Counted from the first letter of the stretch, positions 2,913-23,356 are shown. The stretch is DNA of 32,000 bases from Desulfobulbaceae bacterium (GCA_028718985.1 JAQUKQ010000006.1:10061-42060), one strand, 5' to 3'. Notes: generated by a model not told the origin, from the letters alone. Made by a program: numbers and translations.

Positions 2913-3662
2913 TTAATTTCCACAAACAGGGCAACGCTGCAAGCGTTGGATCTTCTCTAATCCGCAGGCCTCAAGCAAGGCCTCGTCTCTAAAGATAGCT
3001 TCTGTTGGCCCGTCGGCGGCAATTTTTCCACGATGAAAAACGATTGTCCGTGTACAGAGATCCATCACCATGTCCAGATCGTGGGTGGCAATAATCTTTG
3101 TGTGTTGGAATGATTTCAGGAGATTGATCAATCGGCGGCGGGCGGCGGGGTCGAGGTTCGAACTTGGTTCGTCCATGACAAGGATATCCGGCGACATGGC
3201 TAGCACTGTTGCGATTGCCACGGCACGTTTTTCGCCACCGGAAAGATGATAGGGCGGTCGATTATGCAGGGCGGAGGCTCCAACCCGTTCCAGGGCTGCT
3301 TTGACCCGGGACTCGACTTCGTCAGCAGGCAAACCGAGGTTTAAGGGGCCAAAGGCGACATCTTCGTGTACTGTCGGCATGAAAAGTTGGTCGTCCGGGT
3401 CCTGGAAGACCATGCCTACCGTTCGGCGGATCTCTTGTAATGTCTCTTTGGTCAGTGGGTAGTCTCCGATTCGCACCGTCCCGTGCTGGGGGGTCAGATA
3501 GCCATTTAAGTGGAGCAATAGGGTAGATTTCCCTGCGCCGTTGGCACCTACGATTGCCACCGATTCACCATGCGTGATGCGGAAGGAGAGCCCTTTAAGG
3601 GCCTTGGTGCTATCCGGGTAGCTATAGCGGAGATCGACGACTTCGACAATATGATGACTCAT
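2913..3662 (-). CDS. cbiO: ECF-type ABC transporter ATP-binding protein (CbiO/EcfA family)
   Basis: 249 aa with Walker [13 protein letters not shown] signature [12 protein letters not shown] and Walker B ILVMDEP. The N-terminal pattern [12 protein letters not shown] is typical of CbiO/EcfA. A 4-nt ATGA overlap with the upstream T-component gene indicates translational coupling. Confidence 0.9.
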
Positions 3663-4471
3663 GACATGACCTGTGTTAGCAGTGTGCCCAATAATTGCGG
3701 CAGATTATAGCTTCGCATGATTGCAAAGACGGCTACCCACCCCAGGGTGAACAAGATGTCGGGTAAGCTAATGCGTGAGGGGCGGAGCACTCTTACCTCG
3801 CCGTCAAAACCACGGCTCAGCATTGCCCGATGAACCCGCTGGGCTCGATCGAGTGTCCTGAGCAGGAGATGGCCCACGACCGAGGCAAATACCTTCATGC
3901 CAAGCCCCCGTTTGCCGAAGGAGCGCAACGCCCTGGCTCGGAAAAGCCGCATGGCTTCACCCCCCAGAACGAAAATATAGCGGTAGAGAAAGAGGAGTTG
4001 CACAGTAAGCACCTTCGGTAATCCTAAGCGCAGCAAGGCAAGACACAAGCCATGGAAGCTGGTGGTGGCTATCAGCAGAAAGGCGGTGCTGATGGTCAAG
4101 CAAAAACGCAACAGGATCGACAAAAACGAAATCCAGCCGCCGCTGATGGGCAACGTCCCAAGGTGGATCAGGATCTCTCGGTCGAGGAAGGGGTTGAATA
4201 TGCCTACCATGACGGCAAAGGGGGAGACAATGATGACTTTACGGACAATGAATCCTACCGGGAGTTGGCCTAAGGTGATCAGTACGACTGGATAGAGAAA
4301 AAAAGGCAAGAGTGCTGAAACCTCGTACTTGGGAAAGGAGACTACCGCCAGCAAGAACGCCATCGAGGTCAGGAGTTTGGCCCGTGGGTCTAGTCGGTGA
4401 ATGGCTGTATGTTGTTGGGCTAACTGGTCAAGCCGTCCGATATCAAAGAAAGAGGTGTCAATCTTGGCCAT
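3659..4471 (-). CDS. cbiQ: ECF transporter transmembrane T component (CbiQ/EcfT family)
   Basis: The CbiQ hallmark HRLDPRAKLL is followed by multiple TM helices and a C-terminal Arg-rich coupling region (RALRSFG...LLRTLDRAQRVHRAMLSRGF). I place the start at the internal ATG (MAKIDTSFF, 4469-4471), giving 270 aa. The 85-aa extension in the ORF track (to 4726) is non-membrane, low-complexity-looking and unlike CbiQ N-termini. Confidence 0.82.
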   Translation of the reverse strand: MAKIDTSFFDIGRLDQLAQQHTAIHRLDPRAKLLTSMAFLLAVVSFPKYEVSALLPFFLYPVVLITLGQLPVGFIVRKVIIVSPFAVMVGIFNPFLDREILIHLGTLPISGGWISFLSILLRFCLTISTAFLLIATTSFHGLCLALLRLGLPKVLTVQLLFLYRYIFVLGGEAMRLFRARALRSFGKRGLGMKVFASVVGHLLLRTLDRAQRVHRAMLSRGFDGEVRVLRPSRISLPDILFTLGWVAVFAIMRSYNLPQLLGTLLTQVMS

Positions 4472-4705
4472 GTCAGCGTTCGGGCGACCTTGAATCGATA
4501 AAGAATGGGGGCGCGTGGGACAGGGTGTGAGGCGGCTACTTGTCCCGTACGTGGTGAGGGTGTATCGATGATTCGACAAACGCGCATACAATAAACCGAT
4601 CGGCGCATAAAGACAACACCATTTTCTTGGAATCGTACTATCGGTGGGCTTGGTGAAGTGTGGGTGCCGCCCGAGGTTGCGTGCCCCTTTGCTCGGATGG
4701 ACATA
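4472..4705 (-). promoter_or_regulatory. Long untranslated leader of cbiQ with nested inverted repeats (candidate cis-regulatory RNA, class unknown) and a possible -10 TATAAT at 4706-4711
   Basis: There are about 230 nt between a minus-strand TATAAT (4711..4706, preceded by TGG) and the cbiQ ATG, with no credible CDS. Stems are visible: CCGAG/CTCGG near 4672-4698, GGGACA(4517-4522)/TGTCCC(4541-4546), and two ATCGAT palindromes (4494-4499, 4564-4569) bracketing a GC-rich core. I found no B12 box or other riboswitch signature I can name. Confidence 0.3.
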
Positions 4706-4755
4706 ATTATATACCAAAAAGGCCATCTTTCTGTTATTTTAATCGAGTTTTATGA

Positions 4756-4784
4756 TTGACAGGCGCGGGTGCAGCCCTTAATTT
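4756..4784 (+). promoter_or_regulatory. Candidate sigma-70 promoter for tig
   Basis: A perfect -35 TTGACA (4756-4761) is followed after 16-17 nt by a weak -10 (TTAATT/TAATTT, 4778-4784), about 125 nt upstream of the tig ATG. The -10 matches only 3/6 positions, so confidence is low. Confidence 0.3.
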
Positions 4785-4908
4785 TGTTGGCGTTGTTGAA
4801 GGGTAAATTGGCACCGTCGTTAGACGGCATTCAGGTTGTCGGCAAAGAGGGAGAGGTCTCCTTGCCCAATATATTCAATTAATTTTTACTCAGAAAAGGA
4901 AGGTTTTA

Positions 4909-6225
4909 ATGGAAGTCGCGGTCGAAGATCTCAGCACACTCAGAAAGTCGTTGAAGGTAAGCTTGTCGAGCGATGTCGTTGCCCCTAAGCTTGGCGCCTC
5001 GTATCAAAAATTACAAAACCAGGTCGCGATCAAGGGTTTCCGCAAGGGCAAAGTTCCTATGAAAGTCCTTGAAAAGGGTTATAAAGATCGAGTGCAGGCT
5101 GAAGTGAGTGAGGCTCTGATTCAGGAAACCTATTTTGATGCCTTGGCGCAGGTTAAGCTTGAGGCCGTAGTGCACCCAGACATCAGGTCTTTCGACTTCC
5201 CCGAGGATGGTTCTTTTGTGTATGTTGCTGAAGTGGAGGTTAAACCGCAATTTGAACTTGGTGCCTACAAAGGGATCGAAATTGAGCATCCGGCCATAGA
5301 GGTAAGCGAGGAGGAGATCACCAAGTCTCTTGAGTTGACCAGACGGGAGATGGCCCCTCTGCAGTCGGTCACTGGTCGCGGGGTACAGAAAGATGATCTG
5401 ATTGTGCTCGATTTCCAGGGCTACGAGAATGGTAAAGAGTTGCAATACGTTGCTGGCAAGGACTCACCTGTCGATGTCGGTTCCGGTCGTAATGGCCAGG
5501 AGTTTGAAGGGGCGCTCTTGGGGTTGAAACTTGACGAGGAGACGCGGCGTGAAGTGCAGTTTCCGGCAGATTTCGCAAGCGCCATGCTGGCCGGCAAAAC
5601 GATAGAGTTTAAGATGACGGTAAAGAACATCAAAGAGCGGGTTCTGCCGGCCATTGATGATGATTTCGCCAAAGATGTCAGTGAGGATTTCGCAACGCTT
5701 GCCGATTTGACCTCAAGTATCAGCGAAAAAATCCGTAAAGAGAAAGAGAAGGCCATGGATGGTGACATTACCGATAAGCTGATGTTGAAGCTGGTCGATT
5801 CGCACACCTTTGAAGTGCCTGCCCGTTTGGTAGCCTATGAAATTGACTCCTTGGCTAAGGACTTTGAGACTAACCTGGAACGGCAGAATTTAAGTTTGGA
5901 GGCTATTGGTTTAAGCCGGGAGAAGCTGGCCGAAACCTATCGGGAAGCGGCAGAGCGTCGGGTTAAGGGTGACTTTATCCTGAAGAAGATCGCCGAGGTT
6001 GAGAATATCAAGCTTGCCAACGAAGATATTACTCAAGGATACAGCCGTATTGCTCAGCAGTATGGTATGAAAATCGATGAGGTGAAAGAGTACTTCAAAG
6101 GCCGTAACAACCTCATGCCTTTTATGAACGAGCTGTTAAATGAGAAAATATTGGGCTTTTTGCGCGATGCGACGATTGTTAAATTCGTGGCAGCTGAAGC
6201 CACGGAAGCTGGAGCCGAAGCATGA
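4909..6225 (+). CDS. tig: Trigger factor (ribosome-associated PPIase chaperone)
   Basis: 438 aa. The N-terminus [19 protein letters not shown]...GFRKGKVP carries the ribosome-binding GFRxGxxP motif. A strong SD (AAGGAAGG) lies upstream. The conserved tig-clpP-clpX-lon synteny supports the call. Confidence 0.95.
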
Positions 6226-6821
6226 ACTTGATTCCGATGGTGGTGGAACAGAGTCCGCGTGGTGAGCGGGCCTATGACATCTACTCTAGACTGCTGAAGG
6301 AGAGGATTATCTTTCTCGGTACCGGGGTAAATGACGATGTCGCCAATGTGATTGTTGCCCAGCTGTTGTTTCTGGAGGCTGAAGACCCCGATAAGGACAT
6401 CACCTTCTATATCAACTCACCGGGCGGTGTTGTCACGGCAGGCATGGCGATTTACGATACGATGAATTATGTGAAGTGTGACATCGCGACCCTGTGCATG
6501 GGTCAGGCGGCCAGTATGGGTGCAGTGCTCCTTGCGGCAGGCACCAAGGGCAAGCGTTATGCCTTGCCCAATTCGCGGATCATGATTCACCAGCCTATGG
6601 GCGGGTTTCAAGGGCAGGCGACGGATATCGATATTCATGCCAGAGAGATTCTTCGCATGCGGCAGGATTTGAATAAGATTCTGGCTCAGCATACTGGTCA
6701 GAAGATTAGCCGAATCCAGCGAGATACCGAGCGGGACTTTTTCATGAGTTCTGCTGAGGCCAAGACCTATGGCTTGGTGGATAAAGTTTTGACCCGTCGC
6801 CAAAACCAGGAGGGAGAGTAA
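6222..6821 (+). CDS. clpP: ATP-dependent Clp protease proteolytic subunit
   Basis: 199 aa with [19 protein letters not shown], the catalytic Ser context GQAASMGA and the His context IMIHQP. An ATGA overlap links it to the tig stop. Confidence 0.97.
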
Positions 6822-8074
6822 TGGCAAGACGTAAAAACGATGACCATGTGACCTGTTCTTTCTGTGGGAAAAAGCAAGACGAGGTTAAAAAACTCATTGC
6901 CGGTCCGAATGTTTTTATCTGCGACGAGTGTATCGAGCTGTGCAATGAAATCGTCCTGGAGGATACCGAGCACGTTGTTGATGGTGCTTCGACCGATATC
7001 AAACTGTTGAAACCGAAAGATATCAAGGCAAAGCTTGACGATTACGTCATTGCCCAAGATCACGCCAAACGGGTGCTGTCTGTCGCGGTGCATAATCACT
7101 ATAAAAGAATCAGCAGCACTCTTGAGGAAGAAAACCCCGTCGAGTTGCAAAAAAGTAACATCATTCTGATTGGTCCAACCGGCAGCGGGAAGACGTTACT
7201 TGCCCAGACCTTGGCCCGTATTCTGAACGTGCCGTTTGGCATGGCCGATGCCACCACCCTGACTGAAGCGGGATATGTTGGTGAGGATGTCGAAAATATC
7301 CTGGTGGGGCTGTTGCAGTCCGCCGATCAGGATGTCGAGCGTGCCTGTCGCGGCATTATCTATATTGATGAGATTGACAAAATTGCCCGTAAGTCGGATT
7401 CGGCCTCCATCACCCGTGACGTCTCTGGAGAGGGCGTGCAGCAGGCGCTTCTCAAGATTATCGAGGGGACGGTGGCTGCTATCCCACCCAAAGGTGGTCG
7501 AAAGCACCCCCAGCAAGAGTATGTTCGGCTCGATACCAGTAATATTCTCTTCATCTGTGGCGGCGCCTTTGTCGGTCTCGATAGTGTGATTAAAAAACGA
7601 ACGGGTACCAAGTCCATGGGCTTCGGTGCCAAGGTCGTGGGCGAGACAAAGAAAAAGATGGGCGAGATTCTGGCCATGGTACAACCGGAAGACTTGCTCC
7701 GTTTTGGCCTGATTCCTGAGTTCGTAGGGCGTTTGCCGGTCATTGCCACCATGAACGAGTTGGATGAGTCCGACTTGATCCGCATTTTGCGTGAGCCGAA
7801 GAATGCCCTGACCAAGCAGTACGAGAAGCTGTTCGAGTACGACCATATCCGTTTGCGATTCACAGAGGGTGCAGTGACCGCCATCGCGAAGGAGGCGGTG
7901 AAGCGCAAGTCCGGTGCACGTGGTCTACGTTCGGTGATGGAGGAGGCCATGCTAGAGGTGATGTATGATCTGCCCTCCCAGGAAAATGTTCGTGAGTGTG
8001 TGATCAGCGAGCAGGTCATTCTCAACGGTGACTATCCCGTCGTCCTTTATGAAAACGAGAAAAAAAGCGCTTGA
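6821..8074 (+). CDS. clpX: ATP-dependent Clp protease ATP-binding subunit ClpX
   Basis: 417 aa with an N-terminal C4 zinc finger (CSFCGK...CDECI), Walker A GPTGSGKT and Walker [16 protein letters not shown] overlap links it to clpP. Confidence 0.97.
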
Positions 8075-10524: not shown

Positions 10525-10548
10525 TAGCCGTAAAACTGATTTTCTCCC

Positions 10549-10603
10549 CCTGCGACTTCGATAGTATCATTGTTCACCATCGAACCCTAAACGAAGTCGC
10601 AGG
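10549..10603. repeat. 12-bp perfect inverted repeat (possible shared terminator between convergent lon and the FabI-like gene)
   Basis: CCTGCGACTTCG (10549-10560) pairs with CGAAGTCGCAGG (10592-10603) around a 31-nt loop. There is no U-tract on either strand, so terminator function is uncertain. Confidence 0.3.
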
Positions 10604-10757
10604 ACTACTCCTTGCCACCTCATTTCCTCCCTCCGTCCTATTCTTTCTTCCTCCCGTATTTCTCCCTAACGTGCCTCTACGTTTTCTGGCCGGCTTATTG
10701 ACAAGGCTCTCTGGCGCAACATGACAGCGAGACAGCGTAACCTATTCTTGTAACATC

Positions 10758-11567
10758 TTAAGCTTGTGGGAAATTTACTCGGCGGACGATTTCAGGGTCA
10801 AAGTAGTTGATTGCCATGCCGGCATCAACAACGATAGCTTGAGCATTGATGCCAGAGGAACGTTCGGAGAGCAGAAAGGCGGCACAGTCGGCGGCTTCAG
10901 TGGTTTCGACACCGCGTTTTCGTGGGATCACTTGCTCGGCAAAGAGGTAGGAGTCAACATAACCGGGGATGCCGGCTGAGGCCGAGGTCTTTAGAAGCCC
11001 AGGGCAGACGGCGTTGAAGCGGATTTCGGAAAATTTGGCAAAGCTCTGAGCCAGAAAACAGAGGGATGATTCGAGGGCGGCCTTAATCGGGGCCATATAG
11101 CCATAATTTTCGGCCGCCATCCTGGTGGTGGAGATGGAGATGGTGACCACCGAGGCGTTTGGCGCAAGCACGGTGCTGAAGTGGTTGGCAATGGAGATCA
11201 GTGAAAAGCAGGAGATATTGACGGCCTGCAGAAAATCGGCCTTTATCGTTTGGTGGAAGGGCCTGAGTCCTGCTGAGTAATTGGCAAAGGCAATGGAGTG
11301 AACCAGCCCATGGATAGGGCCGTCGATGTCATGTGTGATGTCGTTTCGCAGACGGATAATGTTCTCTTCATCCTCGACATCACAGCAGTAGACCCGTGCC
11401 TCGGGGAAAAGCTTCATGGCCGTTGCTCGCCGCTCTTCGCTGCGCACGACATGGATAACCTCTGCCCCTTCTGCCAACAGGACTTTGGTGATGGCGCAGG
11501 CAACTGATTTCTTGTTGGCCAAGCCGAAGACGATAATGCGCTTGTTGTGCAGATTGAGGAAGGACAT
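10758..11567 (-). CDS. Enoyl-ACP reductase, FabI-like SDR (last gene of the FAS-like operon)
   Basis: 269 aa, colinear with E. coli FabI. Shared motifs are the N-terminal [15 protein letters not shown] (FabI G-x-A-x-x-x-S-I-A type), HSIAFA, and the catalytic Y-x6-K in [12 protein letters not shown]. It begins 7 nt after the upstream gene. Confidence 0.85.
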
Positions 11568-11574
11568 GGGCGGA

Positions 11575-12009
11575 TTACGGTGTTGTTGCTTCGGTGCAGC
11601 CGAATTCTACGCTGACTGCGGTTTTGCCATCGACCTTGACTTTGCCCTTCAGCACCCAGGCCGAACCGATTTTTTCCACCAGTTTAGCCTCCATGGTGAT
11701 GGTTGTCCCCGGTTGCACCTGGCGTTTGAACTTCGCACTGTAGATTCTGGTCAATACGGGAACACCGGAGAAGGAGATTCCATCTTGGTCGAGACGATGG
11801 GAGATCAAGAGTGCGCCGGCCTGGAAGACCGCCTCGCAGAGGATTACACCTGGAGTGATCGGTTGGTTTGGATAGTGGCCCTGATAGAGTTCAAGGTCGG
11901 CGGCCAAATCTTTTTCGGTGACGATCTTCTCGTCGTCGAGAGAGACAATTCGGTCAACCCACAGGAAGGGAGGCCGATGAGGGATCATGGCGCAAATATC
12001 AAATTCCAC
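11575..12009 (-). CDS. 3-hydroxyacyl-ACP dehydratase, FabZ-like hot-dog fold
   Basis: [13 protein letters not shown] and [25 protein letters not shown] parallel FabZ LPHRYPFLLVDRV / [23 protein letters not shown], with the catalytic His and Glu present. I chose the GTG start at 12009 because a GGAG lies 7 nt upstream. That start overlaps the FabG-like stop by 11 nt. The ATG at 11988 is an alternative. The track's 12081 start would overlap the upstream gene by 83 nt. Confidence 0.8.
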
Positions 12010-12742
12010 CGTTGATCTCCAGAACGGAACCGGTAATGTAGGCAGCTTGTCGCCCGGCGAGAAAGAGGACGGCGTCTGCAACCTCTTCAGGGGTACCGAA
12101 ACGGGATAGGGGTACTAACTTTTGGTATTCAGCCCTTTTTTCGGGGGAAAGACCAGCAATCAGTTCGGTGTCGATGAAGCCTGGGGAGACACAGTTGACT
12201 GTGATTTTACGCTTGGCGGTCTCCTTGGAGAGTGAGCGCATCATGCCGATCTGCCCGGCCTTCGAGGCGGCATAATTGGCCTGCCCGGCAAATCCCAGGT
12301 GCGCCATCGGAGAGGTAATGAAGATAATTCGGCCGTATTTTTTCTTCATCATCAGCATAACCGCGAACTTGGCCATGTTGTAGGAGCCGGTCAGGTTGAC
12401 ATCAATGACGCGACGCCAGTCTTCCTCTGCCATCATGGCCAACACTCCATCACGACGGATACCGGCGTTGCTGACCATGATGTCGATGCTACTGAATTCC
12501 TCTTCAACGGCGGTGTAAAGGGTGTTGACCATCGCGTAGTCGGCTACGTCACACTGATGAAGGCGAAGGCGTCCCTCACTGTAATACTCATGCTTCATCA
12601 GATCCGCCGCCGCTTGATCCCCGCCATAGACACCAATCACCGTTGCCCCCCCGGCCAAGAGCGCTGTGCTAATCGCCCGGCCGATTCCTTTGGTGGCACC
12701 GGTGACAATGGCCACTTGCTGGTCGAATTGTCCTGTTGTCAT
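11999..12742 (-). CDS. 3-oxoacyl-ACP reductase, FabG-like SDR
   Basis: It has VAIVTGATKGIGRAI (TGxxxGIG), NAGI, and catalytic S...YAASKAG. I place the start at the ATG at 12742 (MTTGQFDQQVAIVTG), 10 nt after the upstream stop. The track's longer start (12790) overlaps the upstream gene. Confidence 0.88.
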   Translation of the reverse strand: MTTGQFDQQVAIVTGATKGIGRAISTALLAGGATVIGVYGGDQAAADLMKHEYYSEGRLRLHQCDVADYAMVNTLYTAVEEEFSSIDIMVSNAGIRRDGVLAMMAEEDWRRVIDVNLTGSYNMAKFAVMLMMKKKYGRIIFITSPMAHLGFAGQANYAASKAGQIGMMRSLSKETAKRKITVNCVSPGFIDTELIAGLSPEKRAEYQKLVPLSRFGTPEEVADAVLFLAGRQAAYITGSVLEINGGI

Positions 12743-12752
12743 CGCTTTCGCT

Positions 12753-14159
12753 TTATCCCCTGACGTAGGCATCCACGTCATTAGCAACAATCACTCCATA
12801 GTTGATTGCCCCGAGCCAGCCGGACATGATGATGCCGACCGAACCGACATGGAAGAGACCTGGTACGACCTTGAAGATCGAGCGGGAGATGTCTAACCCT
12901 TCGAACTTGGTGCCAAAGGATGAGCCATTCGTGTGCAGCGTGTAGCGCTGAAAGGTCTTCGGAGTGGCGGCCTCCAGCCAGTCGCACTTGGCTCTGATGC
13001 CGGGCAGGTATTTCTCGAGTCCGCTCATGGCGCGGTCGATCATCCTGCTCTTTGCCGCCTCGTAGTCGGTATCGTTAAGGCTAACCCAATCGTCATAGTG
13101 GCCGTTCATGGAGGCGACAATGGTGTAACGGTCATGGCCTGGTCTGGTTTTTGGGTAGTAGAGTGAAAAGGTGCGGCTCTTGGTCTCCATGTTCAGCATC
13201 TCGTCGGCACTGAAATCAGCCGCCTCTGAAGTGAAGAGCAAATCACCGATATCGTCGATGGCTTCGCCTTTTTTGACCCCCATGTAGACCTGGCAGCTCG
13301 AATTGTTGACCTTGACAAGGTCGCAATCCTTCATGAAGTCGGCAGGGAAGGCCTCGCGGCCTGCCAGGTCGTTGACGGTGTTGAGGATGCCGGCGTTTGA
13401 GACTACGGCCTTGGCACTGATTTCTCGATTTTTTACAATGACACCGCGCACTTGCCCTTTATCAATAATGATCCGATCAACTTTAGAGCGGTCGCAGAAG
13501 GTCACCCCATTTTTTTCAGCCTCTTCCACCATCATGCCGATCAGTTTATCGGTGCCACCGCTGAAGGTGAAGACCCCCTTGTTCATGAAGTTTGAAAAGA
13601 CGATGCCATAGGTAATTGCCGGATCATTTAACGTGGAACCGTTGGCGTAGGTAATGGGTTCCATGAGCAGGCGGTGGACATCGCTGCGGCCAGGAAAAAA
13701 TTTCTCGAAGAGTTCTCTGGTCGTCATGCGGCGGTCGTCGAAGAAATTCATACCGGCGACGGTGGTGAAGAAGCTCTCAACGGTCTGACGTGTAATTTTA
13801 AAGGTGTTGGTCAGGATATCGCTAAAATTTTGGCGATCGAAGGTGGTGGTCAAGGAAAATTGGGGATTGTCAAAGCGGATATTTCTGAGCTGGACAATGG
13901 AGTCCATGATGGCTTTGTTCCAATATTTACGGCAGGTCTTGACCATGCCGTATGGAAAGCCGTGCAGGGAGATGTCGAAAATATGGTCTTTTCGTTTGAA
14001 CCAGGTAGCAAGCCCACCGAGTTGGTGGTGATGCTCAAGGAGTAACACCTGATGGCCGGCCTTAGCCAGGCGGTTGGCGGAGGTCAGGCCACCGAGGCCT
14101 GAGCCGATAACAATAACATCATAGGTGTTCTTGAGTTCGTCAATTGAGTGATAAACCAT
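12753..14159 (-). CDS. FAD-dependent oxidoreductase, phytoene desaturase/CrtI-RetSat-like family (paralog 2)
   Basis: 468 aa with an N-terminal dinucleotide-binding fold [37 protein letters not shown] (GxGxxG...E...GG). The length and C-terminal G-rich segment ([15 protein letters not shown]) are typical of the amine-oxidase/CrtI superfamily. Confidence 0.8.
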
Positions 14160-14233
14160 GGAATTTCAGAGGAAGTGAGAAAAGTTAGCAGCCGTCGCCC
14201 AATCTTTGCCAAGGGCAGCAATTATAGTTGAAT

Positions 14234-15658
14234 TCAGGCCGTGTCTTGATCGGTTACGGTTAGAAGTTGTTGATTGACAATGGTGACGCCGCTCAACATG
14301 GCACCGACGATACCCAGGAAACCCTGATCAGTGCCAGCAAGGAGTAGGTTCCGGTAGCGGGTTAGGCCATCCTTGATTTTCAAGGGGCTACCGTATACCG
14401 CACCTGCCGCCTTGCCGCTGTAGTGTTCAATACTGAGAGGTGTAAAGGTATCTAGATATACTATGTTTTGGCTGAAATTCCCAATCATTTTGCCGATTTT
14501 GGCAAGTGAGAGCTCTTGCCATGATTTTTTCATTGCTAAATATTGGCTTGATCGGCCGTTGACAGAGGTTTGGTCGGCCAGGCGGAAGCTTTCGTAGTTG
14601 GCGGGATGGGTGACGCGGATTTGAATCGGATCGCGGGGCTCCAGTTCCTGGAAGTTGGCGGGGAAGTTAATGACTCCAACGCCTATATCAATGGGCTCGG
14701 CTGGGCGGCGATAGAGGAACGTGTCACGGTCACTATAGAAAATGCAAGTAGCATCGTGCTGGATGTCAGTCAGGGTGGATTGGGGCAGAAGGTAGATCGA
14801 TTCGACAAAACTTAATCGCCCAACATAGTCGTTGCGCACACCAGGCAGGCAGTCGGGCAGCAAGGCCATGGTGCCGACGGCACCAATGGTTGAAAGCACG
14901 GTTTGTGCCTCGATCTCTTCGCCGGTTGCCAACCGCACGCCAAGGACGGTGCCTTTTCTTACGAGGAGGGACTCCACTCCTGTGCGGTAACGAATTTCAC
15001 CGCCCAAGGCGAGGTAATGGTCTTGCAGCATCTCCAGAAAATCACGGATGCTGCCTGCTGGCCGGAAGAACCCTTCGAGAAAGACCGCCTGGAACATAAT
15101 GACAAATTGCGCCAGGTCCATGTCGTCTTCTTCACTGTTGCCATAGATCATTAAGGGGCAGAGGAGCATCTCGATGAGCAGCGGATCAGGGATGAAGGAG
15201 CGTAGTCGTTGGCGGGCCGAAAGCCATGGACGCTTGAGGAATGGGTCGTAATGTTTGATGAAATCGGTAAGCTGCGTAAAGCCCGCGGCGGAGGCTGGAA
15301 AGTTAGTGCAAACCTCATTGTGCAGGCAGGAGAAATCGTTGCTGAAGTGGAGACTTTTGGTGGGGAAACGGATCTCCGAGCCGATCTGCTCGTGGGTCCG
15401 AAAGGTCTTGCGGGAGAGCTTGAGCTGACGAAAAAGACGGTTGAGGGGGGCGGATCGATCTTTGGGCCCGGCGTAATTGGTCATGGCATGGAGGCCGGTC
15501 TCAAACAGATGCCCTTGCCGATGATAGTAGGAGTTGAGGCCGCCAGGCCGGGTATGTTTTTCCAGGATGACTGTCGGCTTTCCAAAGCGGGCCAAGCGGA
15601 TGGCGGCGGCAAGCCCGGACATGCCACCGCCGATGATAACGATTGGCTGCTCTTTCAC
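14234..15658 (-). CDS. FAD-dependent oxidoreductase, phytoene desaturase/CrtI-like family (paralog 1)
   Basis: 474 aa with IVIIGGGMSGLAAAIRLARFGKPTVILEKHTRPGGL at the N-terminus and LLAGTDQGFLGIVGAMLSG at the C-terminus. It uses a GTG start one nucleotide after the ACP stop (TGA-G-GTG), implying coupled translation. Confidence 0.8.
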   Translation of the reverse strand: MKEQPIVIIGGGMSGLAAAIRLARFGKPTVILEKHTRPGGLNSYYHRQGHLFETGLHAMTNYAGPKDRSAPLNRLFRQLKLSRKTFRTHEQIGSEIRFPTKSLHFSNDFSCLHNEVCTNFPASAAGFTQLTDFIKHYDPFLKRPWLSARQRLRSFIPDPLLIEMLLCPLMIYGNSEEDDMDLAQFVIMFQAVFLEGFFRPAGSIRDFLEMLQDHYLALGGEIRYRTGVESLLVRKGTVLGVRLATGEEIEAQTVLSTIGAVGTMALLPDCLPGVRNDYVGRLSFVESIYLLPQSTLTDIQHDATCIFYSDRDTFLYRRPAEPIDIGVGVINFPANFQELEPRDPIQIRVTHPANYESFRLADQTSVNGRSSQYLAMKKSWQELSLAKIGKMIGNFSQNIVYLDTFTPLSIEHYSGKAAGAVYGSPLKIKDGLTRYRNLLLAGTDQGFLGIVGAMLSGVTIVNQQLLTVTDQDTA

Positions 15659-15659
15659 C

Positions 15660-15911
15660 TCAGACGTCGCGCAGTTTAGGCTCCAGATAATTCACGCAGG
15701 AATCGAGGGTGGCGAGCTGCGGGTAATCCTCTTCCGGGATTTGCAATTTGTATCGCTTGCGAAGCTCCATGACGATGTCAAGAAAATCCATTGAGTCGAG
15801 ATCCAACTGATCCCGCAATGGTTTGTCTGACGCCAGGGTAGCGGTGTCGGCGTCCTCGTCGATATCTTTGATTATTTCAATAATTACGTCGTTTATTGCG
15901 TCTCTGTTCAT
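15660..15911 (-). CDS. Acyl carrier protein (dedicated, operon-encoded)
   Basis: 83 aa and acidic, with the phosphopantetheine attachment motif LDLDSMDFLDIVMEL (DSx). I chose the ATG at 15911 (GAGGA 6 nt upstream) rather than the TTG one codon earlier. Confidence 0.9.
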   Translation of the reverse strand: MNRDAINDVIIEIIKDIDEDADTATLASDKPLRDQLDLDSMDFLDIVMELRKRYKLQIPEEDYPQLATLDSCVNYLEPKLRDV

Positions 15912-15937
15912 CAAGAATCCTCGTATATGAAAACGAA

Positions 15938-17185
15938 TTATCCGTTATATTTTTTGACAATAATGACCGAGTTGATGCCGACCATGCCAAATGAATTATT
16001 GAGAATGGTTTCAACCTTGTCGATTGTGCGTGCCTCATTGAGTACCAGATTGGGCAGGGCACATTCAGGATCGAGACGATCGACGTTTATGGTTGGGTGT
16101 ACCATATGGTCGCTAAATGCCGGCAAGTTGGCCGCGAGTTCTAACACTCCCGCCGCACCCATGGCATGTCCAATGATACTTTTTGTGTTATTGAACCACG
16201 TGGTCGGGCAGTCTGCAAAGATCTCGGCGAGACCCCGACACTCTTCAATATCTCCCTGCCGGGTGCCAGTGGCATGGGTGTTGACGATATCGATATCGTC
16301 TGGTTTTAAGCCTGCCCGAGAGAGTGCCAAGCGGATACACTCGGCCTGACGCGGGCCATGGGGCATGACGAAATCTAGGGCGTCTGAATTCATGGCATAG
16401 CCGACGATCTCACCGTAGATCTTGGCGCCGCGCTGTAAGGCGCGATCTAATCTCTCCAGGCAATACAGGCATGCCCCTTCAGAGATGACAATGCCGTCTC
16501 GGTCAAGATCAAAGGGACGACTGGCCTTGGTAGGATCCTGGTGGTTGGCCAATGCGCCTTGCGCCTTGAAACTTGCGAAGATGCCAAAAGAGCCAACTGA
16601 TTCTGAGATGCCACCGCAGAGGGCCAGCTCAACCTCGCCTAGGCGCAGCATCTGAGCGCCTTGAATAAGGGCAGCATTACCGGCGGCACAGGCGGCACCA
16701 ACAGAATAATGGGGGCCAGTGATGCCGAGGCTCATGGTAATTTCGCCTGCCGGGTTGTTAAGGACGGTGCGTGGGTTGTGATGATGCGTCCAGTAGTCTA
16801 CATTGTAACCGTATTGGCTGATGTTGTAGACTTCGTTCTCAGTCTCCACGGTGCCGTGCTCGGTAAGCCCAATATAGACACCCGTCAGGTCGCGGCGATA
16901 CTCGCTGAAGTTTATCCCGGCGTCGGCTAGGGCCTCATGAGCGGCATAGACGCCGAGGCAGCCAGCCCTGGTGCCTCGTTTGTTATCTTTTTTCTTGCGA
17001 TACCTGGTCTCAGGGAAAGTGCACACCCCAGCCGGGGCCTTACCCATATAGCGCAACTCAATTTCTCGAATTTCACTTGTGCCTGCTAAGACCTTTGCGC
17101 GGAAATCGTTGAGGTTGTCAGCGTTGGGTGCGGCCAAGCCAACTCCGGTAATTACGATCCGCTGCTGTATTGGCAGGGTATTCAT
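15938..17185 (-). CDS. Beta-ketoacyl-ACP synthase, KAS I/II (FabF/FabB-like), first gene of the FAS-like operon
   Basis: 415 aa with the Cys-His-His triad contexts VGAACAAGNAAL, NTHATGT and GHAMGAAG, plus the C-terminal NNSFGMVGINSVIIV. There is no adjacent chain-length-factor paralog. Confidence 0.92.
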   Translation of the reverse strand: MNTLPIQQRIVITGVGLAAPNADNLNDFRAKVLAGTSEIREIELRYMGKAPAGVCTFPETRYRKKKDNKRGTRAGCLGVYAAHEALADAGINFSEYRRDLTGVYIGLTEHGTVETENEVYNISQYGYNVDYWTHHHNPRTVLNNPAGEITMSLGITGPHYSVGAACAAGNAALIQGAQMLRLGEVELALCGGISESVGSFGIFASFKAQGALANHQDPTKASRPFDLDRDGIVISEGACLYCLERLDRALQRGAKIYGEIVGYAMNSDALDFVMPHGPRQAECIRLALSRAGLKPDDIDIVNTHATGTRQGDIEECRGLAEIFADCPTTWFNNTKSIIGHAMGAAGVLELAANLPAFSDHMVHPTINVDRLDPECALPNLVLNEARTIDKVETILNNSFGMVGINSVIIVKKYNG

Positions 17186-17280
17186 TTGTTAGATGTCAAG
17201 CCTCCCGGCATGGCAGTCGCAACAGGCCTGAACCTGCAAGTCAAAAAAAGAGTTAAAGGAACGGTGGATGGGGCGTGCCC

Positions 17281-17296
17281 AGCAACGTGCCAGCCA
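17281..17296 (-). promoter_or_regulatory. Candidate sigma-54 (-24/-12) promoter upstream of the FAS-like operon
   Basis: The minus strand reads TGGCTG-gcacg-TTGCT, which is GG-N10-GC spacing. The -12 element matches TTGCW perfectly and the -24 element matches TGGC of TGGCAC. It sits about 95 nt upstream of the KAS ATG in a 193-nt intergenic region. A sigma-54 activator is encoded about 5 kb away in the same window. Confidence 0.35.
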
Positions 17297-17378
17297 AACA
17301 GTGTACAACACGGAATGTAAAGGGAAATTCATAAAAAGAGAGAAACTATAATAAAAAATCGCCAGACTGTCGATAGGA

Positions 17379-18026
17379 TTATTCAAATTGCTGTTTGAAA
17401 CGGGTAAATTCTGCACGGAGTTGTTGAAGTCCCTCCCTCAGAGATTCAATCTCGCTGGACATGGTATCTATTCGGTCATTTTCATTACGAACGGACAGGG
17501 TGGCTGGTTCTGGGCGGGCGGCGGGCATCTCTTCTGGGGTTGGCTCACCGGACAGGAGATGTGCATAGCGCGGCTCTTTCCTGCCAGCCTGTCGAGGGAG
17601 TTTAACGACGTACTCGGCCTCAATCATTTCGTTCAATGTTGTTTCGACGGCTGTGATATCTGCAAAAGAGAAGGCTCGCTCGCAGCGGGTTCTGATCTCG
17701 CCAACCGTCTGTGGCCCTCGGAGCAAGAGCACCATCAAAATGGCCGATTCACGGCCTAAAAGGCTATGCCGATGCAGAAAAGTTTCGGCGTATTTAGGGA
17801 CCCGGCTGGCATCGCTTTGCACTGCCAACTGTTTCTCTTTAAGGGAGTCGAGCGCGCGCACGACGGTTGTTTCATCAAAATCAAAGATTGGATCTCGATT
17901 CGACTTCTGATTGCAGGCCGTGGTCAATGCGACAAGAGAAAGGGGGTAATAGTCTGGTGTCGTCAGACTCTTTTCAATGAGTGACCCTAAAACCCGCGCT
18001 TCGACATCACTTAAGATGAAGTCCAT
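17379..18026 (-). CDS. DUF480 / YceH-family protein (tandem winged-helix-like, UPF0502)
   Basis: MDFILSDVEARVLGSLIEKSLTTPDYYPLSLVALTTACNQKSNRDP is the characteristic YceH N-terminus. I place the start at the ATG at 18026 (GGAGGG SD) rather than the track's 18071. The C-terminus is a coiled-coil-like segment. Confidence 0.75.
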   Translation of the reverse strand: MDFILSDVEARVLGSLIEKSLTTPDYYPLSLVALTTACNQKSNRDPIFDFDETTVVRALDSLKEKQLAVQSDASRVPKYAETFLHRHSLLGRESAILMVLLLRGPQTVGEIRTRCERAFSFADITAVETTLNEMIEAEYVVKLPRQAGRKEPRYAHLLSGEPTPEEMPAARPEPATLSVRNENDRIDTMSSEIESLREGLQQLRAEFTRFKQQFE

Positions 18027-20287: not shown

Positions 20288-21955
20288 TTAGAGGGGAAGT
20301 GGCAGGGTGATAGTAAAGGTGGAGCCTTTGTCTACCGTACTTTTGACGGCTATTTTCCCTTGGTGTCCTTCAATAATCTGTAAAATTATGGCCAGTCCCA
20401 GACCGGTGCCATTTTCTCTGGTTGTGAAAAAAGGGGCGAAAATGTCGGAGAGCATTGAGGCAGGAATGCCGCAACCACTATCGCTGACCTCGATTACGGC
20501 AAAAACCTTACCATCGCTTGCGGTCTCTTCTTGGGCGCTGATTTCGATCCTGCCGCCGGACTCCATACTGAGGCATGCGTTATGGATGAGGTTCAAAAAA
20601 ACTTGTTTCAATTGGTGTTGATCCGCCCAGCAGTCGAAGTTGTGAGGGATGTCGGTGTGCAGGTGGCAGTTGCTCTTGAACTTTGCACTCTGCTGGATAA
20701 CGGTCCAGCATTCATCAATCAATGATGGCAAAGGGATCCATGTTTGTTCCGGAACCGCAGGTTTGGAGAATTGTAAAAAATCTGTGATATTGGTTTCAAG
20801 GCGGGAACATTCTCGAGTGATAATAGTTAAGAGGCTATGATTCGTTGACGAGGTGGGGAATTCTTGGGCCAGCACTTGAGCGGCACCTGAAATGGCGGCC
20901 AGGGGATTTCTGAACTCATGGGCAATGCCTGCGGCAATTTTACCAATAGCGGCCATCTTTTCATTTTGACGGATTTGTTCCTCCATCTGGCGAATACGAC
21001 TGAGATCCTGCAAGGTGTAGACACGGCAATCATCCTGCACCTCAGGCATGTTGAGCCGAGACCAGGAGTATCCGACCGGGATATGACGCTGATCTTTACG
21101 GACGAGTTCCATGGTGGGACGGTCATCTGTCTGGGCCGCGCTTAGGAGGCCAGGAAAGATCTTGCTCAGATTGCGATCCATTACCTCGAAGGCAGCGTAG
21201 CCGGTAATGGCCTCGGCGGCTCGATTAAAAGAGGTGATTTTTCCCTGGGCATCAACCGTAATAATGCCGGAGGTGATGTCATCAAAAATTTGTTTGTAGA
21301 GTTGGCTTAAGAAGTCAAGATGGCGAGAGGTCTGATTGAGTGCCGTTTCGGCCCAGTTCAGCCGTTCTGACAGAAAGGCGCTGAGCAGGGCGACGAGAAT
21401 AAAAGAGAAGCTGTAAATTAAAAAATTTTGCAGCAGAATCGCTGGCGCGGTGACGGCGTTAGGCCTAATAACGGCGGGTAATTGGGTTGCCCAGTCGATG
21501 TATTGCGAAGAGAGCATGAGCCCGTAGCTGATAATCGTAAAGCCCGCAATGATCATTCCGCCCCGGCGAAAAAGCATGAGCCCTGCACTGATGATCGGGA
21601 AAAAATAGAGAAAGGTGAAGATAGATTCGCTGCCGCCGGAAGCATAGATGATCATGGTGATCAGCACAGAATCGGCCAGGATCTGGCCGTAGGTGAAGTT
21701 CTCGAGACGGTTGAGCCGATTGATGGTGACTGCCGAAGCAATGCTGAAAAGATAGATGAAAAGACAGAAAAAAACGATAGCGACGATAGGGGGAAGGTTA
21801 AGCCCGGGGTGTGAGACTTGCAGGATTGAACTGGTACCTAGAAAGAGAGAGAGCAGAAAGACACGGAGCAGAAGAAGCCATTTGACTTGGCGGCGGAGTC
21901 TTGATTCGTCAGAGAGGCTGTTTGCGGTTGGGCTAAGTTGGATGCTGGCAGCCAC
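20288..21955 (-). CDS. Sensor histidine kinase: polytopic membrane N-terminus, PAS, HisKA, HATPase
   Basis: 555 aa. About 6 hydrophobic helices occupy residues 25-200, followed by a PAS-like segment (ITVDAQGKITSFNRAAEAITGY). The H-box is IAHEFRNPLAAI, the N box LIHNACLS, G1 DSGCGI and G2 GTGLGLAI. The GTG start directly abuts the regulator's TAG stop. Confidence 0.88.
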   Translation of the reverse strand: MAASIQLSPTANSLSDESRLRRQVKWLLLLRVFLLSLFLGTSSILQVSHPGLNLPPIVAIVFFCLFIYLFSIASAVTINRLNRLENFTYGQILADSVLITMIIYASGGSESIFTFLYFFPIISAGLMLFRRGGMIIAGFTIISYGLMLSSQYIDWATQLPAVIRPNAVTAPAILLQNFLIYSFSFILVALLSAFLSERLNWAETALNQTSRHLDFLSQLYKQIFDDITSGIITVDAQGKITSFNRAAEAITGYAAFEVMDRNLSKIFPGLLSAAQTDDRPTMELVRKDQRHIPVGYSWSRLNMPEVQDDCRVYTLQDLSRIRQMEEQIRQNEKMAAIGKIAAGIAHEFRNPLAAISGAAQVLAQEFPTSSTNHSLLTIITRECSRLETNITDFLQFSKPAVPEQTWIPLPSLIDECWTVIQQSAKFKSNCHLHTDIPHNFDCWADQHQLKQVFLNLIHNACLSMESGGRIEISAQEETASDGKVFAVIEVSDSGCGIPASMLSDIFAPFFTTRENGTGLGLAIILQIIEGHQGKIAVKSTVDKGSTFTITLPLPL

Positions 21956-23356
21956 CTAGTCTATCTCGTATTTTTTAATTTTATAACGAATCGAGCGGAA
22001 ACTGACCTGTAGGAGTTCCGCTGCCTTCATCTTGGAACCATCGGCCTGCCGCAGTGCCTGGGAGATCAACTTCTTCTCCAAGCAGGCAACGGCGTCATCG
22101 AGGCCCATGGCAAAGTAACCATCATGGTTGACAGAGGGGTCTTCCATAGAGGGGGGTATCTTTTTCCGCTTATGGGCAGCAAGGGTCAGGCTCTCGGGCA
22201 GGATGATATTGGAGTTTTCGAGCGCCACGCCGCGCTCGATAATGTTCTCAAGCTCTCGGACGTTCCCTGGAAAATCGTACTCCAGCAACACCTCCATAGC
22301 GTAGGAGGAGAGGGCTGTGACCTCTTTGCCGAAGAGGGCCGAATATTTCTTGAGAAAGTGGTCGACCAAGAGCGGCACGTCACCCTTACGCTCACGGAGA
22401 GGCGGTACGCGGAGCGGCACAACCGCCAATCGGTAGAAGAGATCCTCGCGAAATCGCTTGGCAATGACCTCTTCCTCCAAATCCCGGTTGCTGGCAGAGA
22501 TGATGCGGACGTTGGCCTTGATTGTCTCATTACTGCCAACCGGTTTGAACTCCCGCTCCTGAATAATACGTAGTAGTTTGGTCTGGATCAACGGGGTCAG
22601 TTCCCCAACCTCGTCGAGAAAGATACTGCCGTTGTTGGCCTCGGCAAAGAGCCCGGTTTTGGTGGCCAATGCCCCGGTAAAGGCCCCTTTGACGTGGCCA
22701 AAGACTTCACTCTCGAAGAGGCTCTCTGGGATAGCGTTGCAGACGATGGGTACAAATTTGTGGGAGGCGGCTTTGCTCAGATTGTGGATGGCCTGGGCTA
22801 CCAGTTCCTTACCGGTACCGGATTCTCCTTGGATGAGGACATTGGCGTGGGTCGGGGCAATGCGGCTGATCAGGTCGAATATTTTTTTCATCTCCGGACT
22901 TTGACCGATAATCCCCTGGAAATTATTGCTGTCACCAATCGCTCTGGTTTGGGCCGATGAGAGCGGCTGTGATGCCGCATCACAGCTGTGCAAGGCGTTA
23001 TTGATAATCGCCTTGATCTCGGCGACATTGAAAGGCTTGGTGATATAGTCAAAGGCCCCGCCCTTCATTGCTCGGACGGCGTCTTCTGGAGAGGCATAGG
23101 CAGTAATCAGGATGAGTGGGGTTTGCAGGCCGAGAGAACGGATCTGCTCGAGGAAACTGAGGCCGCTTCCGCCGGGCATCTTGATGTCTGAGATGATCAG
23201 GTCGACCGATTCTTGCTGCAGAATAGAGAGCGCGGTAGAGGTGTTGGCAGCAGTTAGGGCCGCATACCCCTCCTTCTCGAGTAGAATTTGCAGAAACTCC
23301 CGCATGCTGAGCTCATCATCAACTACGAGAAGTCTTTTGCGGTCGGGGAGTTCCAC
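21956..23356 (-). CDS. Sigma-54-dependent response regulator (NtrC family: REC, AAA+, Fis-type HTH)
   Basis: 466 aa. The REC domain is LLVVDDE...ISDIKMPG. The AAA+ domain has Walker A GESGTGKE and the sigma-54 contact loop GAFTGA. A C-terminal HTH (AAELLQVSFRSIRYKIKKY) follows. GTG start with an AGGTGA SD. Confidence 0.92.
   Translation of the reverse strand: MELPDRKRLLVVDDELSMREFLQILLEKEGYAALTAANTSTALSILQQESVDLIISDIKMPGGSGLSFLEQIRSLGLQTPLILITAYASPEDAVRAMKGGAFDYITKPFNVAEIKAIINNALHSCDAASQPLSSAQTRAIGDSNNFQGIIGQSPEMKKIFDLISRIAPTHANVLIQGESGTGKELVAQAIHNLSKAASHKFVPIVCNAIPESLFESEVFGHVKGAFTGALATKTGLFAEANNGSIFLDEVGELTPLIQTKLLRIIQEREFKPVGSNETIKANVRIISASNRDLEEEVIAKRFREDLFYRLAVVPLRVPPLRERKGDVPLLVDHFLKKYSALFGKEVTALSSYAMEVLLEYDFPGNVRELENIIERGVALENSNIILPESLTLAAHKRKKIPPSMEDPSVNHDGYFAMGLDDAVACLEKKLISQALRQADGSKMKAAELLQVSFRSIRYKIKKYEID

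Follow-up and report, generated by a model that had tools for sequence, protein, structure and literature searches.

The window analysed here is a 32,000-nt stretch of DNA from Desulfobulbaceae bacterium (GCA_028718985.1, JAQUKQ010000006.1:10061-42060), and the element under study is a run of seven tightly packed, co-directional open reading frames (ORFs) on its minus strand (10758-17185), in the order KS-ACP-FL1-FL2-KR-DH-ER. These encode a 415-aa FabF-like ketosynthase (KS; 15938-17185, Pfam ketoacyl-synt N and C domains, E 8e-36 and 4e-27), an 84-aa acyl carrier protein (ACP; 15660-15914, Pfam PP-binding, E 3e-8), two amine-oxidase/CrtI-type flavoproteins of 474 aa (FL1; 14234-15658) and 468 aa (FL2; 12753-14159), both matching Pfam Amino_oxidase / NAD_binding_8, a 247-aa FabG-like reductase (KR; 11999-12742, 274 bits in NCBIfam), a 144-aa FabZ-like dehydratase with a FabA-like Pfam domain (DH; 11575-12009, 112 bits to NCBIfam fabZ), and a 269-aa FabI-like enoyl-ACP reductase (ER; 10758-11567, 160 bits in NCBIfam).

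Start codons were refined using a 94%-identical relative and direct translation, giving gaps of 23, 1, 74, 10, -11 and 7 nt between the seven genes, in agreement with the range of -11 to 74 nt reported in a first-pass annotation of this DNA. The catalytic residues of KS, ACP, KR, DH and ER are all intact and are kept in 57-81 orthologues, depending on the motif; the active-site motifs named in the first-pass annotation (KS C-H-H, ACP DSM, DH His/Glu and ER Y-x6-K) are among those present and conserved. Its description of a set resembling a type II fatty acid synthase (FAS-II), with its own ACP, a single KS without chain-length factor and two CrtI-superfamily flavoproteins, was also borne out. 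All seven proteins scored below the NCBIfam equivalog cut-off of the housekeeping counterpart that each resembles. A Pfam search of all window ORFs of at least 120 aa found no crt, fabH, fabD, phosphopantetheinyl transferase (PPTase), thioesterase or acyltransferase gene, as previously stated, and no plsX, acc or other lipid gene.

Biosynthetic enzymes of the operon

The Cys/His/His triad of KS (GAACAAG, NTHATGT, GHAMGAAG) can be aligned to that of Pseudomonas aeruginosa FabF (4b7v), and the protein scored 305 bits against the NCBIfam fabF model (cut-off 494) and 84 bits against the PfaA model (cut-off 1010). Its gating loop reads GMVG, whereas the canonical loop of FabF/FabB is GFGG, and a GM[VL]G gate was found in 74/74 KS orthologues, a planctomycete KS having GMLG. 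The gate position is the one described as 'Phe392', which guides acyl-chain entry (Table 2, PMC2649909). The operon has this single KS with a full C-H-H triad and no chain-length factor, and so lacks the KS and chain-length factor pair of aryl-polyene or type II polyketide synthase (PKS) systems.

The phosphopantetheine attachment site of ACP is DLDSM, a motif kept in 81 orthologues, and the protein fell below every AcpP equivalog cut-off (39 bits versus 70), while remaining 67-69% identical in Planctomycetota and in the distant locus L091 (loci related to the window are designated by L numbers). KR has conserved TGxxxGIG, NAG and YxxxK motifs and a confirmed ATG start, and scored 274 bits against TIGR01830 (cut-off 298) and 225 bits against flexirubin FlxB. 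DH begins at a GTG that overlaps the KR stop by 11 nt, retains its His and Glu (GH...CE), and is alignable to FabZ structures; it scored 112 bits to fabZ (cut-off 155), 110 bits to NF000582 (cut-off 113) and 22 bits to fabA (cut-off 238), and its ApeI-like and ApeP-like Pfam matches were accompanied by the FabA-domain match, to which the ApeI-like ones were secondary. The intact Y-x6-K motif of ER aligned to Staphylococcus aureus FabI, and its score of 160 bits compares with FabI cut-offs of 299-477. Operon proteins also had weak NCBIfam matches to the cispentacin AmcB, AmcE and AmcF models. Compared with housekeeping FAS-II members, KS, ACP, KR, DH and ER have the catalytic residues, save at the KS gate, and fall short of the equivalog scores; compared with Pfa-type synthases, all operon proteins are discrete rather than multidomain and DH is FabZ-like.

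Two flavoproteins coupled to ACP and dehydratase genes

FL1 and FL2 are 21% identical to each other. AlphaFold (AF2) models of both were confident (pLDDT 91 for FL1 and 85 for FL2), and the leading Foldseek matches of these models were 4REP, 4DGK and 3KA7 (E about 1e-23 to 1e-25), with TM-scores of 0.69 for FL1 and 0.73 for FL2 against 4REP, a CrtD-like desaturase, and 0.55 for FL1 against 4DGK, a CrtI. Both proteins have an N-terminal GxGxxG motif and share 16-19% identity with the solved structures of CrtI and CrtD. Against the crtI_fam model TIGR02734 (cut-off 238.1) FL1 scored 67.6 bits and FL2 85.8 bits, which places neither in the family, and against the carotenoid isomerase model (cut-off 587) they scored 64.5 and 110 bits, respectively; carotenoid isomerase (110 bits) and CrtD (108 bits) were the best NCBIfam matches of FL2, both far under their cut-offs. 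Because the structural matches are good but identity is low and profile scores lie under the cut-offs, FL1 and FL2 are shown, as far as sequence and predicted structure go, to have a CrtI fold yet to fall in no characterised carotenoid family, and they are not bona fide carotenoid enzymes. No crt genes, including crtB/crtE/crtY-type neighbours, were found in the window or in related loci.

Some relatives are labelled 'all-trans-retinol 13,14-reductase' (retinol saturase) in their source annotation. Given this label and best profile matches to the carotenoid isomerase model, isomerase or reductase chemistry is as plausible for FL1/FL2 as desaturation. The proteins were also considered as orthologues of anammox kuste3336 and kuste3607, an assignment that was rejected because they share 24-27% identity with these proteins, no more than with Pantoea CrtI; by this measure the two pairs are superfamily relatives, not orthologues. 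The resemblance to anammox clusters mentioned in the first-pass annotation stands for the kind of clustering and does not extend to orthology of the flavoproteins.

The FL2 family is narrow, with 167 representatives at E<=1e-30 among 1.84 billion. Its distant members include a single 625-aa gene on a low-GC (38%) metagenomic contig (L085, 2209-4086) in which FL2 is fused to a FabZ-like DH, followed by an ER orthologue (48% identical) and a radical-SAM gene; an FL2-DH pair alone among housekeeping genes (L088); and two loci, one of them L086, with FL2-KR-DH-ER modules. Modules of the FL2-DH or FL2-KR-DH-ER type occur in clades of 38-71% GC. The FL1 gene, for its part, starts 1 nt past the ACP stop. 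Gene arrangement in these genomes shows an evolutionary coupling of FL2 to DH, once to the point of fusion, and of FL1 to ACP. The 1-nt ACP-FL1 gap, the FL2::DH fusion and the recurrent FL2-DH adjacency in distant clades lend support to the earlier suggestion that the flavoproteins act on chains bound to ACP. Two high-GC metagenomic proteins (P0296 and P0300) join an FL1-like C-terminal part to an FL2-like N-terminus, so that FL1-FL2 adjacency, or fusion or read-through, exists in high-GC organisms too.

Distribution, synteny and selection

FL1 and FL2 are 100% identical to proteins of a Desulfobulbaceae metagenome-assembled genome. A scan of one genome per species found an FL1 relative encoded in at least 540 species-level genomes, and the best 80 of these loci were used for synteny. 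Nearly all of the 80 are labelled Desulfobulbales or wider groups containing them (Desulfobulbaceae, Desulfocapsaceae, Desulfurivibrionaceae and cable bacteria). By tblastn, KS-ACP-FL1-FL2 occurred in the same order in essentially every long-enough locus, usually followed by KR and DH, which answers the synteny check proposed with the first-pass annotation; identities to the window proteins were 72-94% for KS, 76-97% for ACP and 68-88% for FL2. Ratios of nonsynonymous to synonymous substitution (dN/dS), determined against a relative at a synonymous divergence of about 0.3-1.0, ranged from 0.014 (KS) to 0.088 (FL1), compared with 0.009 for the flanking ilvC. The operon is shown to be real, specialised, widely conserved and under selection, and it is far beyond chance, because its gene order is kept in dozens of genomes and dN/dS is 0.014-0.088.

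KR and/or DH are lacking from the cluster in some lineages that retain KS-ACP-FL1-FL2-ER followed by the olefin genes oleABCD, and the invariant core is therefore KS-ACP-FL1-FL2; the term 'self-contained' used in the first-pass annotation was too strong, as KR, DH or ER may be missing. Outside the Desulfobulbales, Planctomycetota carry the gene set with KS, FL2 and ER 58-63% identical to those of the window, and an 8.8-Mb genome with a distant FL2 member has KS-ACP-FL1-FL2-DH-ER.

In the cable bacteria Electrothrix/Electronema the core is interrupted by unrelated inserted genes (L045, 11405-12706; L056, 6387-9531 and 11394-13088), which sit between FL1 and FL2 in both loci and also between KS and ACP in L056. 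No KR, DH, ER or ole genes follow the core in either locus, and the pathway may be remodelled or decaying there. The inserted genes of these loci, and those of L004 and L074, were considered as cluster members and set aside, as they look like unrelated insertions.

Recurrent linkage to oleABCD

When the ORFs of all loci were clustered, four conserved genes in the orientation of the operon emerged 3' of ER. The one directly after ER encodes an OleA-family thiolase (NF006720, 427 bits, cut-off 285), followed by a haloalkane-dehalogenase-like hydrolase of the OleB type, an OleC-family ligase (NF006754, 660 bits, cut-off 478; olefin beta-lactone synthetase models, 535 and 497 bits) and OleD (387 and 380 bits, E 1e-116). 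The OleC and OleD subtype models were dropped as predictors of product class, as Shewanella-type and Xanthomonas-type models score alike.

Linkage was counted in the 51 loci that have at least 4.5 kb beyond FL2. ER was present in 30/51, and in 30/30 of these, all Desulfobulbales, oleA and subsequent ole genes lie directly after ER, whereas in the ER-less loci ole genes follow the core in 0/21, tolQRAB being found there instead. The ER-oleA gap has a median of 9 nt and is 10 nt or less, often with overlap, in 17/33 loci. Adjacency to ole genes was found in L086, L090 and L091 as well. In L091 an operon of ACP-FL1-oleA-oleB-oleC-(permease)-oleD, with FL1 directly upstream of oleA, is convergent with FL2-KR-DH-ER; in L086 a convergent oleDCBA lies 4 kb from the FL2-KR-DH-ER module; and a Planctomycetaceae metagenome-assembled genome has KR-oleD-KS-ACP-FL1-FL2-DH-ER, with KS 63%, ACP 67%, FL2 58% and ER 62% identical to the window proteins and a GMLG gate in KS. 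The comparison of loci thus shows the gene set to be repeatedly linked to oleABCD, in at least three arrangements and in lineages of very different GC, which is a classic signature of a (here presumptive) functional partnership. This linkage is the strongest clue to function and, like the KS gate, was absent from the first-pass annotation. No paper tying the gene set to ole was found in the literature searched, an incomplete library, and the link seems to be unreported.

Two further observations were made at ole-linked loci. Five Desulfobulbales loci (L015, L021, L027, L044 and L066; for example L044, 16843-17457) encode a stand-alone response-regulator receiver protein of about 190 aa between oleA and oleB, a placement that hints at regulation of olefin synthesis. 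In L091 the genes upstream of FL2-KR-DH-ER (3275-7393) encode a further CrtI-like protein of 520 aa as well as a di-iron oxygenase resembling AurF, an alpha/beta hydrolase and a membrane fatty-acid desaturase; judged by these similarities, they may form a second lipid-modifying cluster.

The operon without ole genes in the window lineage

In the window the operon ends at a synteny breakpoint (10525-10757, no strand assigned), beyond which a convergent lon-clpX-clpP-tig block stands where relatives carry oleABCD. Remnants of ole genes 3' of ER were sought in the window by tblastn and none were found. Two relatives with FL2 91-94% identical to that of the window (L082 and L083) share the ole-free arrangement, while in L004, the relative next in similarity (88%), the upstream ilvC-DUF480 genes are the same and ER-oleA-oleB lies downstream. 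It follows that the window lineage has either lost its ole block or relocated it. The seven window genes are still under strong purifying selection (dN/dS 0.01-0.09) without adjacent ole genes.

A proposed synthase of unsaturated acyl chains

We put at about 0.5 the probability that the operon products form a dedicated acyl-chain synthase of dissociated (type II) organisation, which works on its own ACP, makes cis-unsaturated and probably polyunsaturated chains without oxygen, and in relatives feeds them to the Ole enzymes. The enzyme identities of KS, KR, DH and ER are clear, and together they would run the elongation cycles. FL1 and FL2 would act on ACP-bound intermediates, FL2 working with the FabZ-like dehydratase, and would probably convert or create enoyl double bonds such that these survive elongation, in place of the FabA-type isomerase domains of polyunsaturated fatty acid (PUFA) synthases. 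The altered gate of KS, together with KR, DH and ER as dedicated enzymes, would handle unsaturated intermediates; more speculatively, GMVG in place of GFGG may admit kinked chains. In relatives the product would be handed to OleABCD for head-to-head condensation to very-long-chain polyolefins of the C31:8/C31:9 type. If it is handed to the adjacent OleABCD, the gene set occupies the position that pfa holds beside ole in Geobacter. In the window lineage the product might go to ole genes elsewhere in the genome or to a membrane lipid.

The closest functional parallel is the Pfa synthase with OleABCD: in Shewanella, C31:9 is a Pfa product condensed by OleABCD, and Geobacter bemidjiensis, which also makes C31:9, has pfaDABC-oleABCD-pfaE in tandem (PMC4882568, PMC3098273). 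Like Pfa, the operon would provide a secondary-lipid synthase that needs no oxygen and has a carrier protein of its own; it is encoded (in relatives) directly beside oleABCD and is proposed to supply a polyunsaturated C16-type chain for condensation to C31:9. Unlike the operon, Pfa is a type I multidomain megasynthase with tandem ACPs, FabA-like DH domains and no flavoproteins, whereas the operon encodes separate FAS-II-type proteins, two of them flavoproteins, and the window itself is without ole genes. The rhizobial acpXL-fabZXL-fabF2XL-fabF1XL cluster, which serves the very-long-chain fatty acid of lipid A, is likewise a FAS-II paralogue set with a private ACP devoted to one special acyl chain; it has neither flavoproteins nor ole linkage. 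The rhizobial cluster includes a dedicated acyltransferase.

FAS-II paralogues beside 'phytoene dehydrogenases' were reported from Kuenenia and Desulfotalea psychrophila (DP1860 and the adjacent pair DP2405/DP2406) by Rattray 2009 (PMC2649909), and the co-localisation in anammox bacteria and deltaproteobacteria mentioned in the first-pass annotation is thus accurate. D. psychrophila has no Pfa-type PKS, C31:8 and C31:9 hydrocarbons were detected in it and are also reported from Planctomycetes, and a novel anaerobic PUFA pathway was proposed (Rattray 2009, PMC2649909). Those clusters resemble the operon in the co-location of FAS-II paralogues with amine-oxidase/phytoene-dehydrogenase-like genes and in their unproven function; the operon differs in having no radical-SAM, methyltransferase or phenylacetyl-CoA-ligase genes and in the 24-27% identity of FL1/FL2 to kuste3336/kuste3607, and ole linkage is absent from the 2009 description. 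Neither kuste3336 nor kuste3607 can replace crtI (Javidpour 2016, PMC4790861), and a 2026 review gives ladderane biosynthesis only as alternative proposed mechanisms (PMC13459092), which agrees with the earlier statement that such clusters have no established biochemical function. On function, the literature searched for CrtI-like enzymes in the anaerobic synthesis of unsaturated fatty acids, for Desulfobulbaceae, for OleA/Desulfotalea and for DP2405/DP2406 gave nothing beyond Rattray 2009. Since the clustering was already noted in comparative genomics in 2009, the bare observation is not new; with the ole link, the FL2::DH fusion, the multi-phylum spread and the signature in the KS gate it becomes a sharper, directly testable hypothesis.

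A bolder version of this proposal, tentative and on balance doubtful, is that the gene set is a dissociated type II PUFA synthase constituting a third route to polyunsaturated chains, one independent of oxygen, in which FL1/FL2, as enzymes like CrtISO or RetSat, and a FabZ-like DH would set cis double bonds on a private ACP; it would be common to Desulfobulbales, Planctomycetota and others and be the source of the Desulfotalea C31:8/C31:9 hydrocarbons. To our knowledge there are two established ways to polyunsaturated chains, oxygen-dependent desaturases and the Pfa megasynthase, and we know of no mechanism of anaerobic double-bond insertion for many bacteria without FabA, FabM or FabX. How Desulfotalea, having no Pfa, arrives at C31:9-type polyolefins has been a question since 2009. 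The operon is widespread and compact, at seven genes (eleven where relatives add ole). Action of the flavoproteins on enoyl-ACPs, if true, would be new chemistry for the CrtI superfamily, would bear on the proposed desaturase step of ladderane biosynthesis, and would provide a small toolkit for anaerobic production of unsaturated hydrocarbons.

Several points weigh against a synthase that supplies Ole. No ole similarity was found by tblastn anywhere in the window, nor beside the operon in the two closest relatives, and with no adjacent ole genes in this lineage the operon must have a use that does not need them; Desulfocapsaceae-type loci are without both ER and ole beside the core. The dN/dS of KS is near that of ilvC, and such very high conservation fits an essential membrane-lipid role too. 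With no thioesterase, acyltransferase, FabD, FabH or PPTase gene, priming and hand-over to OleA are unexplained. OleA uses acyl-CoA. No product is on record for any member of the gene set, the connection to Desulfotalea assumes that DP2405/DP2406 are, as seems very likely, the counterparts of FL1/FL2, and neither sequence nor predicted fold tells isomerisation, desaturation and saturation by the flavoproteins apart.

Alternative explanations

The main rival, unlikely but to be taken seriously, is that the operon is an anaerobic monounsaturated fatty-acid branch for membrane phospholipids. FL2 and DH would then replace FabA/FabM/FabN/FabX by way of a cis-3-enoyl-ACP, KS would act as FabB/FabO, ER would be a dedicated FabI as in Enterococcus fabN-fabO-fabI, and the ole linkage would reflect shared use of unsaturated chains. 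The FabA/FabB, FabM, FabN-FabO-FabI and FabX systems are indeed alike in diverting a double bond at the enoyl-ACP stage and in having a dedicated KS and ER take the unsaturated intermediates; that a flavoenzyme is capable of this is clear from Helicobacter FabX, although FabX is an FMN/[4Fe-4S] enzyme of a different fold, and none of these systems includes CrtI-fold proteins. They use the housekeeping ACP. A branch of this kind would suit the FL2-DH pair standing alone among housekeeping genes in L088, the strong constraint on the operon without adjacent ole genes and its near-universal presence in the recovered Desulfobulbales loci. A specific ER in unsaturated fatty-acid synthesis has precedent (PMC9671860), and in D. 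psychrophila the 16:1 and 18:1 acids each occur as two isomers, with different 13C depletion (PMC2649909). However, one double bond needs neither a private ACP nor a second flavoprotein, and the tight, repeated and variously arranged oleABCD joins point to a dedicated supply line.

The flavoproteins could instead be true CrtI-like desaturases that pass electrons to quinone or another acceptor and place extra double bonds either in chains carried by ACP or in the completed Ole hydrocarbon, in the manner of phytoene desaturation. This we regard as improbable, even though the nearest folds of the models are the desaturases 4REP and 4DGK and the CrtI-family UfaD desaturates fatty acyl chains. FL1 and FL2 share the FAD-binding fold, the N-terminal GxGxxG motif and TM-scores of 0.55-0.73 with the CrtI/CrtD/CRTISO/RetSat proteins; unlike for these, their gene context implies acyl-ACP rather than isoprenoid substrates. 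Desaturation was proposed by Rattray 2009 (PMC2649909), but with a carotenoid isomerase as the best family match and retinol saturase labels among relatives, isomerase or reductase chemistry is equally likely, and the ACP-FL1 and FL2-DH couplings speak against a free hydrocarbon as substrate. A further point against it is that CrtI chemistry yields conjugated, not methylene-interrupted, polyenes. That the operon belongs to a type II PKS or aryl-polyene-like pathway to a conjugated polyene pigment, or to another secondary metabolite unrelated to hydrocarbons, is very improbable. The ApeI-like and ApeP-like Pfam matches of DH, the 225 bits of KR to FlxB and the weak AmcB, AmcE and AmcF matches would suit it, but the FlxB, Amc and Ape scores lie far under family cut-offs, and one KS without chain-length factor beside a FabI-like ER is not the expected composition. 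Aryl-polyene clusters are accompanied by export, glycosyl- or methyltransferase genes, whereas no such genes, nor ammonia lyase genes, were seen in the window or related loci. Least credible of all is that these genes are simply the housekeeping fatty-acid synthase of the organism: the KS-KR-DH-ER-ACP set is complete and very strongly conserved, but every component falls below its equivalog cut-off, fabH, fabD, plsX and acc are absent from the 32-kb window, several lineages lack KR, DH or ER in the cluster, and the set is joined to ole operons. Moreover, D. psychrophila has five KS paralogues, with FabI located elsewhere (PMC2649909). For each of the housekeeping, carotenoid, ladderane and aryl-polyene readings, one or more of the features tested contradict it.

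Upstream region and other features of the window

The operon is flanked by tig-clpP-clpX-lon (convergent), a gene for a DUF480 protein, ilvC, genes for a PilS-like kinase and a sigma-54 regulator, and haem genes. Neither the Rfam nor the tRNA scan returned anything in the whole window. In the upstream intergenic region (17186-17378, minus strand) a promoter scan proposed, by consensus match alone (10/12 positions), a sigma-70-like promoter candidate, TCGACA-17-TATAGT, at 17373-17345. A sigma-54-type -24/-12 motif (TGGCTG-N5-TTGCT, 17281-17296, minus strand) is located some 100 nt ahead of the KS start, and a sigma-54-dependent response regulator, encoded 4 kb away, and the PilS-like kinase lie at 20288-23356. 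A sigma-54 promoter for the operon was rejected, as the motif was found in 0/64 orthologous KS upstream regions; its absence from 64/64 related loci means that it is probably due to chance or lineage-specific.

A 75-aa ORF (17189-17416, minus strand) fills the intergenic region between the DUF480 gene and KS; it is probably not a gene, because it has no Pfam match and overlaps the end of the DUF480 gene. Elsewhere in the window, a 648-aa protein (235-2181, plus strand) has as its sole recognisable domain a C-terminal retropepsin-like aspartyl protease (residues 540-631), and a 321-aa ORF with no Pfam match (26477-27442, minus strand) adjoins a SIS-domain (GmhA-like) gene.

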